Source: Bilabrum cf. latius
Taxonomy: Eukaryota
Direction of reading: 5' to 3'
NCBI GenBank assembly: GCA_965178125.1
Contig: OZ237765.1
Span: forward strand, 124,001 to 188,000
Length of the DNA: 64,000 nucleotides
Shown here: positions 1 to 57,139 of the stretch, one piece after another
Layout: every line of letters starts with the position of its first letter
Position numbering within the stretch: position 1 is the first letter of the stretch
Notes under the pieces: model-generated
The model's database searches: none
Seen by the model: the letters and a program-made list of their open reading frames with translations, nothing else
Told to the model about the DNA's origin: nothing
Translations under genes and position numbers: made by a program

Positions 1-2668
1 TATCTGCTTCAGCTGCCTCGCCGCTGGCATCAAGAGGGACGCGGAGCTCGCCATCATCCCCCTATTCGTCGTGGCCATCGTCGCGCATGGACACTTGCTC
101 GTCAGTACCCCCGCATGCACTGGTGTGCCTGGGGTCCTCATCCCGCGCATGCCCTGGCTCATCCATCTGGTCCTTCTTGTTATTGTCCTCGTCCTGCCGG
201 ATATTGGAAGCTGCAGCTTCCTTATCTTGCTCTTCATTGGTCCCAAATGCGTCACCAGCTGCCTACAGCACCTCATTGCGCATGGCCTGCCCCTCGACTC
301 CGCCTTCGATAGAGCCTTTGTGCGCCATTCGGCTCGTCTCATCACGGCCTCTGACCTCCTGCTTCTTCCCACCGTCCTCGTCCCCGTCCTCGTCGTTGTC
401 CATCGGTGCCTGTCCCGAACTGGCGCTCTCATTGGTACCACTGCCACCGGCCTCTTTCTTGACTGAGGTCGAGCTGCTAGCCCCAGCCCGAGCTCCAGCA
501 CCAGCACCAGCTCCAGCTCCAGCATCACCTGTCGAGTTGAGCCTGCACCTGAACTCAGCCTCTGGCCTCACCACCCGCTCCAGCCACGCCTCATGCGAAT
601 CCAGCCAATTGACATGCCCCCCCTCAGCCCCCCCCTGAGTCCCCCCCTGAGTCCCCCCCTCAGGCCCCCCCGTCAGCACCGCCGTCTCCCCTCGCCTCAC
701 CCTCCCGATCATCCCTGCCACGCTCCTGCTTACCCCGCCCGCATCCTGTTGTTCCCCGGTTGCAACCATCTCCCATAGCATAGCCACGTAACCCCCAGAC
801 CCTTGTTCCCTGACTAGCCACTCCACGGTGCTGCTCGCATCCAGGAGCACCTGGCGAGAGGCATCGCTAGGGCTGGCAACGCGGTTCGCCGCCCCGCAGA
901 GCAGCAGCTGCTGCGGACGGCCCGCCTGCGGAACCGACCGGATGGCGAGCGCGGCGCCGGGCAGTGCCCCGATCATGGGGGCCCACTTGCCCTTGCCCAG
1001 CTTCCTGGGTATCTCCGAGAGCGGCTTGGCGAGCGCCACGCTCAGTGCCCGCCTGGGGGGCACACCATGCTTGAGGGCCAGGGTGCGGGCGCGGGCGGAC
1101 GCAGGCAGCACGAAGATGACGGCGCGGTCTGGTTTGCAGGGGGGCAGCGGCCTGAGCGGCTGGGGGGGTTGCTGGTGTGACGAGTGCTCGGTCCCTTGTC
1201 GCATGCCGGCGCTCGGCCGCTTGAGGGGCGAGCCGAGCGCGGCGGCGGCTGCCTCCACAGCGGCCTCAGCGGGATCCGTTTCTCTGCCTGCTCCGCCTGC
1301 TCCGCCTGCTCCGCCACCGTCCATGATACCACCAGCGTCTTTGGCGCTGTCTTTCTGTGCACCCATGCTCTTCTCGCTGTCGGGCGAAGGACCGGATGGT
1401 GAACCGCCCGTTGCTGCTTTCTGCAGGGCGGGCCTCGTCTTGGCGCCCTGATGCACCTGGGCCTGCACCTGGGCTTGAGCCTGGGCCTGGGCCTGGGATG
1501 CAGACTCGGCTGGGCGAGCTGCAGCACCATGCAGTGCACTCGCGGTGGGAGAGTCGGCGGGAGGAGGAGTGAGTCCCGAGAAGGAGCCCATGCCTGCTCC
1601 AGTACCGCGCGACCCCTCGGTCTCGGTCCCAATGCGCAGCCCCTGCCGCTTCTCGTGTCGCTCTCCTACGGCCGGCACTGCGGCCCGCTCCTGCACCGCA
1701 ATGCGATGCATCGTCTCACGGCCCGGCAGGCTGTCCTCCATCGCAAGGGCACTGTCGTGCATTGCAGACTGATGCGGCCCCGATGCCCCCACGTTGGGGG
1801 GAAACCCCAGCAGGGAATCCCCCGGGATCAGCCCCCCCTGCCCACGAATGAAAGCCATGAGGCTGTCTTCGCCGGCCCCTGAGAGCGAGCCCAGACTGGC
1901 TCCATTGGTATTCGTCACACCCGGCCCCATCTCGTCCTTGTCCTGGTCCCAGGGCCGGCTGGTCCCACCCGCCAGAGAGTGGGGCAGACCCGGGGCACCG
2001 TACAGGCTGTTTCCTCCAAGCTCCAGGTCGTTTGCGGCAGGTGGCCACGGCGTGTGACTTGGATCAAAATCTCCTCGATAAAGTGCCATTGGCTAAGCCG
2101 CCGCAGAGGAAGATGAGGACAAGGACGTGGTGCTGCGTCCGATTTGGCTCGGGCCTGACTGGCGCTCGTGCTAGCGCGGCGGCAGTCGAGGAGGCGATAG
2201 CATTGTGCCTTGCTCGTCAGGATTCGGCAGATGCGCACCGGCTCGGGCGAGTGCTGCCTTCTGGTGCCTCTGCTGCAGCTTGATGGACCGGCTGGATTGT
2301 TTCTTGCCGGCTTGCTTCGCGGTGCTGCTGCTCGACCGTCGCGACGATGGTTTGGTTCCGCTGCGCTTTGAGTTTGCCTTTGAAAATGTCCTAGCCTTAC
2401 CATCAGAGCGGGGGATATTCCTTGAAGTCTTTGAGGATCCAGGCTTGGTGGATTTACTGGTCACTGCGAACATTGGCTGTCGCGGCGGCTCTGCGCCAGT
2501 CTCAGCCATAGGCAGGGAATCAAGCCCCGGTCCTTGAGATCCAGCACTACCACCCGAAGGCACAACGCGTTTCGAAGCAGGAGTCTTGATCAGAGCCTGC
2601 TACGGCTTACTGAGCGCTGCAAGTGCAGCTGCACGGGCTCCTTCGTACAGATTTTCTGCAACTTCCAT
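1..2668 (-). CDS. Low-complexity hypothetical protein, 3' end beyond the window; weak resemblance to the Cramped/TKI1 domain; needs TAG=Gln
   Basis: ATG at 2668, then one frame open to the window edge with only TAG interruptions (2600, 2171, 2093, 263, 62). It joins track ORFs 2171..2563 and 263..2089. The segment AVIFVLP..ARTLALKHGVPPRRALSV...KPLSEIPRKLGKGKW recalls CRAMP1/TKI1 (by eye only). Confidence 0.65.
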
Positions 2669-3339
2669 TCAAAAACCAACTAATCAAATCGGAGCACAGT
2701 AAATTCAAAATGTACGTGTGCAATATTGCAATATTTTTTCTCTTCAGTCCTAGGTATGTCGAGTCCTGGAGATAGATGAGCTTGGCTGCACCTCATTTGA
2801 AATTTGGCGCCGCGCTAAACGGAACCATTTGTGCGCGGTGCCGATCGGCTGGCGACCGATGGACGAGTCGACGATCGCAGACCTTATCTGGCCTGAATCT
2901 ATCGTCGGGGCGATCATTCGTACCATTTGTTGCTCCGCAATATGATTCGATGGCATCGAAAATCATCGCTGCCCGATGGGCCGCTGATCGTTGGTGCCCA
3001 TCGCCCGCCGATAGTCGGCCCCCGCATCGCGGCGCGATGGGCGCCGGAGCCCGCCGGCACCGCTCGTGGGGCGATGACTCGCCGATGAGACCGAAATCTA
3101 GAATCCCGGCTTTGGGCCTTGCTGCCTACTGCGAATGATTCAGATTTGATGCTAATGGTATAATGCGTAATGATTGTGCCTCTTGGTGGCCATGCCTTGG
3201 CCTAACACTGTACAAGCCTGCCCAAAAGTGCGATTCAGTTCCTGGGTTGCGACCACCCAGTACTCGCGATCCGATCCGATCTTCCGGCCACATGACTATG
3301 GCACTGCACCTTCTGTGAACCTCAGCGGTAGTACAATAA

Positions 3340-3422
3340 TGTTGGTACTGGTGCAGGTGCTGGTGCTGGTGCTGGTGCTGGCGCTGGTGCTGGTGCTAGT
3401 ACTGGTGCTGGTGCTGGTGGTG
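3340..3422. repeat. (GTGCTG)n hexanucleotide microsatellite, present only in duplication unit A
   Basis: Direct reading; the equivalent position in unit B (about 6090-6105) lacks the expansion. Confidence 0.8.
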
Positions 3423-56800: not shown

Positions 56801-56979
56801 ACGGTGCATCGCATGGTGGTGCAAGAAGTGGGGGTGTGGATAGGCAGGGAACAGGTCTAGAGGAATAGGCTCGCACAGCTGCCGTCGCTGATGCTGGCAG
56901 TGGTAGTACCCAGCCTGAGGGTGTGACCGCCGGAATCAGCGCCAGGCAGCGGAGGCGGTTGAAAGCTGCACAGACCTAA
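53845..56979 (+). CDS. MTO1: Mitochondrial tRNA U34 modification enzyme MTO1/GidA (MnmG), about 1044 aa with TAG=Gln
   Basis: [68 protein letters not shown](TAG)[40 protein letters not shown] and C-terminal [16 protein letters not shown]. Six TAGs; TAA stop at 56977. Confidence 0.93.
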
Positions 56980-57139
56980 TTAACGTTGTTTCGATCCATG
57001 GGTGCATGTCTGCTGCAGTTCGGGGACACCCCATGGCGGCGTTCCACGGCTCAGCGGTTGCAACCTCCTTTTCAGAGTTGCTGTGACGAGTGCTGAGGAA
57101 CCCCACCCACAGCCGCACAATAAGGAACCATAACAGAAC

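Follow-up and report, generated by a model that had tools for sequence, protein, structure and literature searches.

What keeps one and the same 12-base word written, about once every 2 kb, into otherwise unrelated genes of a eukaryote is the question raised by the 64-kb stretch of Bilabrum cf. latius contig OZ237765.1 analysed here, which we refer to as the window and whose own positions are used throughout. The word, GTGTGACGAGTG, is non-palindromic and occurs in 14 perfect copies, ten on the plus and four on the minus strand. Another 15 copies carry a single mismatch, giving 29 copies (18 plus, 11 minus) in 64 kb. This recount agrees with an earlier note made from the letters of the same DNA, and every perfect copy lies exactly where that note had placed it. 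None of 100 dinucleotide-preserving shuffles of the window contained a perfect copy, and at up to one mismatch the shuffles held 0.31 copies on average and 3 at most. The third-order Markov expectation for the 12-mer is 0.010, which matches the earlier rough estimate of about 0.01 perfect copies, although the GC content of about 64% assumed there was measured as 0.626. A k-mer scan against the third-order Markov model picked out the 11-mer TGTGACGAGTG as the sharpest word, with 22 copies where 0.035 are expected, and the 9-base core TGACGAGTG occurs 31 times where 0.64 are expected. Local GC at the copies is somewhat higher than in the window as a whole (0.665 vs 0.626). The results presented here refer to the window and to one 9.7-kb contig, L001, that is syntenic with the same region. 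Four nulls were used (dinucleotide shuffle, third-order Markov, synonymous-codon shuffle and codon-order shuffle), of which the codon-aware ones were applied to open reading frames (ORFs) in which TAG is read as glutamine. Core matches at 5401 and 8141 were dropped from the 29, since they match the 9-base core only and lie within a repeated CALVIT peptide of duplicated lectin-like genes. These genes, 3999-5681 and 6736-8421, are tandem duplicates whose products look like secreted lectin/beta-propeller proteins (with weak matches to B_lectin and PQQ_2), each gene having a core match inside the repeated CALV(I/V)T peptide that is not a true copy of the word.

Twenty-seven of the 29 copies lie inside ORFs, in line with the earlier description of copies nearly all in gene bodies, and they are read in five frames on both strands. 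The 17 sense copies read VTS 14 times, one VTR included, and (C)DE(C/W) three times, and the ten antisense copies read HSS (six), LVT (three) or TRH (one). On the minus strand, VTS is read at 12261..12272 (position 11 T>C) and 15549..15560 (perfect), both in the minus-strand ORF 8668-15864, at 14985..14996 (mismatch at position 1), at 38768..38779 (perfect, in the minus-strand ORF 38280-39797) and at 39212..39223 (position 2). The plus-strand copies read in this way are 18224..18235 (perfect, in the plus-strand ORF 17101-27753), 25808..25819 (position 11), 27224..27235 (position 1), 43206..43217 (perfect, in the plus-strand ORF 42041-45199), 44052..44063 (perfect), 56288..56299 (position 1), 56573..56584 (position 11, the copy read VTR), 56609..56620 (position 2) and 56678..56689 (perfect, in the C-terminal helical bundle of GidA). 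CDEC is read from two perfect plus-strand copies, one at 44221..44232 within a Cys/Met pyridoxal-phosphate (PLP) enzyme domain and one at 46505..46516 in the plus-strand ankyrin gene 45483-46739, and RDEW from the plus-strand copy 55845..55856 (position 2) in the plus-strand GidA/MnmG gene 53845-56979. The antisense reading is HSSH for the perfect copies 1175..1186 (plus strand, in the minus-strand ORF 2-2668), 11212..11223 (plus strand, in ORF 8668-15864) and 29019..29030 (minus strand, in the plus-strand DEP/PH gene 27753-30926), HSSQ for 29832..29843 and 30039..30050 (both minus strand, position 1) and SSH for 56533..56544 (minus strand, position 12). LVT is read from 12975..12986 (plus strand, perfect, in ORF 8668-15864) and from two minus-strand copies in the aconitase-family gene, 31891..31902 and 33331..33342 (both position 1), and TRH from 39478..39489 (plus strand, perfect, in ORF 38280-39797). 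The two copies outside this count are both on the plus strand: the Top6A/Spo11 gene 47763-50216 has the TGA of the perfect copy 50211..50222 as its stop codon, and 57081..57092 (position 1) is non-coding, 102 bases past the GidA stop and 15 past a palindrome, GGTTGCAACC. All readings listed previously (VTS, CDEC, HSSH, LVT, TRH and V-stop at 50211) were reproduced. The sixth frame, GTG TGA, holds a stop; it is absent inside ORFs and is used once, as the real Top6A/Spo11 stop at 50211, and the claim that the word is written in all six frames of coding sequence holds for five frames and, for the sixth, only as a stop codon.

Under the codon-aware nulls, the 13 perfect copies found in ORFs compare with 0.14 expected from the synonymous shuffle (maximum 2 in 500) and 0.006 from the codon-order shuffle. 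The tripeptide VTS occurs 17 times where 4.5 are expected, about four times over expectation, and 11 of the 17 are encoded by GTGACGAGT although AGT makes up only 11% of the Ser codons. Therefore, the DNA word shapes the peptide and not the reverse. The five frames, the two strands and the codon-aware nulls exclude a peptide motif or codon bias as the main explanation, as had been argued before, and the word acts at the level of double-stranded DNA.

The copies also differ from one another in a restricted manner. All 15 one-mismatch copies deviate at position 1, 2, 11 or 12 and none in the central eight, a confinement that uniform decay over 12 positions would produce, by our arithmetic, with a chance of (4/12)^15. 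With 0, 1 and 2 mismatches there are 14, 15 and 19 matches where the Markov null gives means of 0.05, 0.32 and 4.95, and the excess is gone at 3 mismatches (54 observed, mean 50.6). The central CpG is intact in 29 of 29 copies. In the position table of the 31 core copies, T and G are strongly preferred directly before the 9-base core, weak outer preferences are seen for G at -3, C at +9 and G at +10, and flank information is near zero beyond three bases on either side, in agreement with the unrelated flanks noted earlier. Position-specific information with graded tolerance is thus present, as in the profile of a protein binding site, and judged from the aligned copies the profile is that of a specifically recognised, maintained site rather than of decaying copies.

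Six copies lie in conserved-domain stretches that can be aligned to solved structures, and at five of them there is no length change relative to the homologues. Without any gap, LVT at 31891 faces YAT of homoaconitase 4kp2, CDEC at 44221 faces ADRA of BesB 9aua, and SS at 56533, VTR at 56573 and VTS at 56678 face EG, IAR and PAT, respectively, of GidA 3cp8; the copy at 56609 adjoins a two-residue gap in the 3cp8 alignment. The absence of length change at five of the six sites indicates that the word came about through substitutions, among them some that changed amino acids, and not through insertion.

Searching metagenomes with the conserved C-terminal portion of Top6A yielded 80 loci. One of them, L001 (9678 bases, GC 0.57), encodes a Top6A protein that is 94% identical and is collinear with positions 49080-58194 of the window at 66% overall nucleotide identity. 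L001 holds three copies of the 11-mer TGTGACGAGTG, where 0.006 are expected, and all three are orthologous to window copies: at the Top6A stop codon, between genes upstream of GidA, and in the part encoding the C-terminal helical bundle of GidA, where the copy at 56678 is identical. Between the minus-strand ubiquitin-like gene and GidA, the window site 53723..53734 (minus strand, two mismatches, 9-base core kept) has its core conserved in L001, where a second copy sits 22 bases off. Over the syntenic block, copies are about three times as frequent in the window as in L001 (10 vs 4, at up to one or two mismatches), the L001 copies being a subset, and the remaining window copies are not motif copies in L001: there is no motif opposite 55845, 56288 and 56573, the L001 sequence at 56533 is three substitutions away, and that at 56609 is half-matching. 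Where such differing sites align well, they are separated by a handful of substitutions clustered in the word. Because every L001 copy is shared with the window, this two-way sequence comparison favours gain of copies in the window lineage rather than loss in L001. The other 79 eukaryotic loci (914,293 bases, 297,965 of them at GC of at least 0.55) contain no copy of the 11-mer or 12-mer. Taken together with the L001 copies, this means that the word is real, does not depend on this assembly and is particular to a narrow lineage. In viral contigs, no relative of Top6A was found, and a 14-base form of the word gave single matches per contig among the at least 120 stretches listed, which is the chance level.

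Within the window, the copies showed no association with ORF starts or ends. The proposed check for periodicity gave irregular spacing (coefficient of variation 0.82 among the 31 core copies, 1.22 among the 29), and random placement could account for a largest gap of the 10 kb seen (P=0.20); seven copies cluster within 1.3 kb at 55.8-57.1 kb. Neither the strand ratio of 18:11 (P=0.26) nor the sense to antisense ratio of 17:10 (P=0.25) is significant. Copies of like strand are clustered (9 runs vs 14.7 expected, P=0.019, in one test confounded with gene orientation over 64 kb), which is a hint of regional polarity or local copying that is inseparable from gene effects in a stretch of this length. 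Seven consecutive minus-strand copies at 29019-39223 are followed by eight plus-strand copies at 39478-56299, and the run of seven crosses genes of both orientations. The search for a partner motif at a fixed distance around the 31 core copies yielded only GC-rich k-mers (P about 1e-5 before correction), which were rejected. Since there is no link to gene boundaries, conventional gene regulation is less likely, and the placement fits a chromosome-wide process rather than gene regulation.

From the enrichment, the independence of frame and strand, the origin by substitution, the position-specific constraint and the lineage specificity, all of them observed, we infer a binding protein, a process that it would serve and a source of fixation bias. 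The reading that we favour, with a probability of roughly 0.4, is that the word is read by a sequence-specific protein along whole chromosomes and owes a fixation advantage to selection or to biased repair or conversion. The word, with the core TGTGACGAGTG, G preferred before it and C/G after it, would then be a signal of double-stranded DNA in one protist lineage. New copies would arise by point substitution, including substitutions that change amino acids, wherever the protein tolerates them, and would afterwards be kept; the outcome would be about one copy per 2 kb on either strand and in any frame without a stop, with gene starts and ends ignored. Such a word could be what a DNA-binding protein or complex recognises as it works along the length of the chromosomes, most plausibly in DNA repair or recombination, and word-bearing alleles would fix preferentially, either through weak selection for a chromosome-wide function or through retention in heteroduplex repair or gene conversion.

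Several points weigh against this reading. Its chromosome-wide extent is an extrapolation from 64 kb and a contig syntenic with part of the window. Transcription would be expected to suffer from a protein bound strongly within transcribed ORFs, and the clustering of strands is not predicted by a purely orientation-free signal. Two of the three sites shared with L001 are in conserved coding sequence, where the protein may explain part of the conservation. Moreover, the window contains other iterated words, which would need more than one recogniser, and the copies of those words in the aligned parts of L001 are not motif copies at the matching window positions.

Almost as much weight goes to the possibility that the word has no function for the organism and accumulates by molecular drive as a by-product of biased repair or gene conversion, which differs from the favoured reading only in the source of the bias. 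Mismatch-directed or site-directed repair could convert near-cognate alleles, as could the shielding of a bound allele from meiotic breaks, and the methylation/repair ratchet proposed earlier is one version of the idea. Drive would be in keeping with the roughly threefold surplus of the window over L001, with the local cluster at 55.8-57.1 kb and the regional sharing of strands, with the acceptance of protein-changing substitutions and with a central CpG unmutated in every copy. Very-short-patch repair offers a precedent, in that specific words (CCWGG-related, in E. coli) are raised genome-wide there, coding sequence included, but a ratchet of that type fixes one position, a single mismatch in a 5-base methylation site, whereas 9-11 positions are held here. 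The CpG observed/expected ratio of the window, 0.85, shows no sign of heavy methylation-driven decay, and several unrelated enriched words would need several such activities. The presence of several iterated words therefore weakens any explanation by a single enzyme or ratchet.

These words were found after masking tandem repeats and the GTGTGACGAGTG motif. A second non-palindromic 11-mer, TGCGCGGCGCC, occurs in 12 copies, and its 10-base core in 17, at 949, 2806, 17848, 18398, 23479, 29226, 30795, 38433, 43097, 44518, 44809, 44868, 44932, 45048, 59201, 62987 and 63574. Its 12 copies in ORFs compare with 0.32 and 0.10 under the two codon-aware nulls, the word uses both strands and several frames, its flanks are unrelated, and six copies are in the gene 42041-45199. 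GGAAC/GTTCCG is often close to TGCGCGGCGCC, and GGTTCCG occurs 25 times where 8.6 are expected. By eye, about 6 of 17 sites have the first and second words within 350 bases of each other, where about 27% are expected. The palindrome GGTTGCAACC has six sites (758, 27168, 31010, 32678, 39079 and 57056; about 0.09 expected), of which 31010 and 57056 lie 77-84 bases past stop codons, and it may be an element of terminator or polyadenylation regions. The palindrome GAACGTTC has five sites (13449, 16245, 40117, 42778 and 44717), three of which extend to CGAACGTTCG; two of the five lie between divergent genes, 320-381 bases ahead of the starts of minus-strand ORFs. L001 holds 2, 1 and 1 copies of the TGCGCGGCGCC, GGTTGCAACC and GAACGTTC words. 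The enrichment of GTGTGACGAGTG thus stands, while its being the sole motif of this kind does not, as two palindromes and at least one more 11-mer are also repeated in the window. A bolder and rather doubtful proposal is that the lineage marks its chromosomes with a small vocabulary of exact 10-12 base words (TGTGACGAGTG, TGCGCGGCGCC, GGTTGCAACC and CGAACGTTCG) that would be written through coding sequence by substitution and read by dedicated DNA-binding proteins, across whole chromosomes, as a 'self' signal or as a repair or recombination signal. Such a vocabulary, if real, would be a eukaryotic counterpart of Chi or of uptake sequences, strong enough to reshape proteins, in a host in which TAG encodes glutamine.

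We consider it unlikely that the word is a cis-regulatory site for a transcription factor, placed inside neighbouring coding sequence in a compact genome. The information profile does resemble a position weight matrix, there are homotypic clusters, one conserved copy is in a divergent intergenic region, and 2 of 5 and 2 of 6 palindrome sites are at positions like those of promoters or terminators. Nevertheless, only 2 of the 29 copies are non-coding, whereas about 23% of the window is, 29 copies would serve about 18 genes, and the indifference to ORF starts and ends described above is not what such a site would show.

An element acting in RNA, such as an export, stability or localisation signal in intron-poor messages, is considerably less probable again. 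The genes are long and apparently intron-poor and sense copies outnumber antisense ones, but this excess is not significant and the ten antisense copies exceed an expectation of about 0.2. No Rfam family matched the word at gathering scores. In predicted folds the word is paired at 0.56, against 0.59 in controls, and so is not preferentially paired. Windows around the sites are slightly more stable (-30.5 vs -27.1 kcal/mol, P=0.015, with controls loosely matched for GC); folding stability as an RNA signal was rejected and treated as a GC effect. Nor is the hammerhead core, the small nucleolar RNA C box, the tRNA A box or a bZIP/cAMP response element half-site known to fit all positions of the word.

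Still less can be said for a 12-base mobile insertion or transposon footprint that preserves the reading frame, which we regard as very improbable: 12 is a multiple of 3, the sole stop-holding frame is absent inside ORFs and the copy at 56609 adjoins a gap, but the domain-embedded copies are otherwise free of length change, window-specific copies align to L001 by substitution, the flanks carry no repeats or duplications, and mismatches confined to the ends are unlike neutral decay. The unrelated flanks and the structural alignments likewise agree with the earlier opinion that no transposon remnant is involved. Contamination by adapters or primers, or an error of polishing, for which no supporting point was found, can be practically dismissed, given copies in frame within long ORFs, orthologous copies in an independent metagenome contig of another species, and 11 listed sequencing runs, none on record as RNA, of which four from one sample, perhaps the source data, hold 0.99 of the sampled words of a 10-kb stretch with five copies, while those of three other studies hold 0.36-0.76. 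Mobile insertion or footprint, structured RNA and artefact are thus excluded as main explanations, along with peptide motif and codon bias.

The favoured reading, a word read along whole chromosomes, invites comparison with known iterated words, and the resemblance to HIP1, bacterial uptake sequences and Chi that had been pointed out is upheld, whereas the word lacks a defining feature of HIP1 and of the uptake sequences and would seem to lack one of Chi. HIP1, GCGATCGC, is the highly iterated palindromic octamer of cyanobacteria. As in HIP1, we find a short exact word, hundreds of times over expectation, in coding sequence, in several frames and with unrelated flanks, and lineage specificity and an unsettled function are common to both; unlike that bacterial octamer, the present word has 11-12 bases, is non-palindromic and belongs to a eukaryotic nucleus. 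The palindromes GGTTGCAACC and CGAACGTTCG are closer in form to HIP1 than GTGTGACGAGTG is. The 12-mer DNA uptake sequence (DUS) of Neisseria and the uptake signal sequence (USS) of Pasteurellaceae come nearer in other respects, being non-palindromic 9-12-mers at about one per 1-2 kb, on both strands, largely coding and common to related species, as the three copies in L001 are here. DUS and USS accumulate by transmission bias and depend on natural transformation and a surface receptor, whereas the host of the present word is eukaryotic nuclear DNA and not a naturally competent bacterium with an uptake receptor. Neisseria DUS often form inverted pairs in terminators, and a single inverted pair of the word was seen here, 56533/56573. 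The two copies at 56533-56584 form a perfect 12-base inverted repeat (arms 56535-56546 and 56572-56583, spacer of 25 bases) in the coding region for the GidA C-terminus.

Chi, the FtsK-orienting polar sequences (KOPS) and the architecture-imparting sequences (AIMS) are words read by a DNA-processing machine along the whole bacterial chromosome, and the present word shares with them over-representation and asymmetry. Chi and KOPS are 8-mers with a strong strand skew that is tied to the direction of replication and switches at its origin and terminus, and they are read by RecBCD/AddAB or FtsK, while here the strands stand at 18:11 with suggestive regional clustering only, and we know of no machinery of the RecBCD/AddAB or FtsK type in eukaryotic nuclei. 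Among eukaryotic sites, the long motifs of multi-zinc-finger proteins, such as the PRDM9 13-mer and the CTCF core, appear similar in having 11-13 specified bases, asymmetry and a strong core with weaker edges. PRDM9 motifs, however, are lost through drive instead of building up, CTCF sites show no enrichment in exons, and both fall short of one site per 2 kb.

In bacteria, genome-wide iterated words that take precedence over coding constraints are familiar from textbooks, and each has revealed a DNA-processing machine or a transmission bias. In the open-access literature searched, no description of an equivalent word for a eukaryotic nucleus was found, and the words themselves turned up there only as incidental primers or oligonucleotides, consistent with the earlier remark that no description of the motif was known. 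If a protein reads the word, a new process acting across the chromosomes of a protist would come into view; if drive alone is at work, the word would provide a clear eukaryotic example of repair or conversion bias powerful enough to alter amino acids, as in the fourfold excess of VTS. Either way, gene prediction, codon models and selection tests in this lineage would be affected, and the exact 11-mer offers a practical handle for pull-down, footprinting and population-genetic tests. New beyond the earlier note are the second word TGCGCGGCGCC, the two palindromes and the reading of TAG as glutamine.

The last of these follows from the genes of the window. TAG is a sense codon read as glutamine, and TAA and TGA remain stops: the longest stop-free run grows from 935 to 3550 codons when TAG alone is taken as sense, with no rise for TAA or TGA. 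The GidA/MnmG homologue has an in-frame TAG exactly at a conserved glutamine of its homologues, and poly-glutamine tracts nearby interchange TAG and CAG. In orthologous alignments, four of four window TAG codons face Q in L001, and of the eight in-frame stops in L001 six are matched by Q, one by S and one by K in the window; L001 also requires TAG to be sense, its longest stop-free run rising from 522 to 980 codons. There are 75 TAG codons in ORFs of the window, with examples at 55276-55278 and 55657-55720 and in the ORFs 17101-27753 and 8668-15864. ORFs read in this code cover about 77% of the window. Gene bodies are confirmed as the hosts of the word, but their reading by the standard code is not, since they are readable only with TAG as sense. 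The cases of TAG reassignment found in the open-access literature searched concern ciliates, fornicates, rhizarians, syndineans and trypanosomatids, and none a stramenopile; a UAG-only reassignment in a GC-rich nuclear genome of an apparent stramenopile is not among them.

The ORF products include PH/DEP, ankyrin, aconitase-family and GH10 proteins, a Cys/Met PLP enzyme, Top6A/Spo11, a mitochondrial carrier and GidA. A eukaryotic origin, which the earlier note had assumed, is supported by the PH, DEP, ankyrin, Top6A/Spo11 and mitochondrial-carrier domains. The best relatives of GidA are from oomycetes and other stramenopiles, at about 50% identity, and Top6A is about 75% identical to its counterparts in brown algae, plants and green algae alike; the lineage is probably a protist of the stramenopiles, judging by these similarities. 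The most conserved block between the window and L001 is 52963-53355 on the minus strand, where 395 bases are 92% identical in nucleotides; by eye, the plus-strand frame resembles a mirrored ubiquitin coding sequence, and the block is probably a gene for ubiquitin or for a ubiquitin fusion. The aconitase-family ORF begins at profile position 119, which makes an upstream exon likely. The GH10 ORF (36675-37976, minus strand) matches its Pfam profile in two stretches split by a hydrophobic segment that does not match and that may represent a short intron across which the frame stays open.

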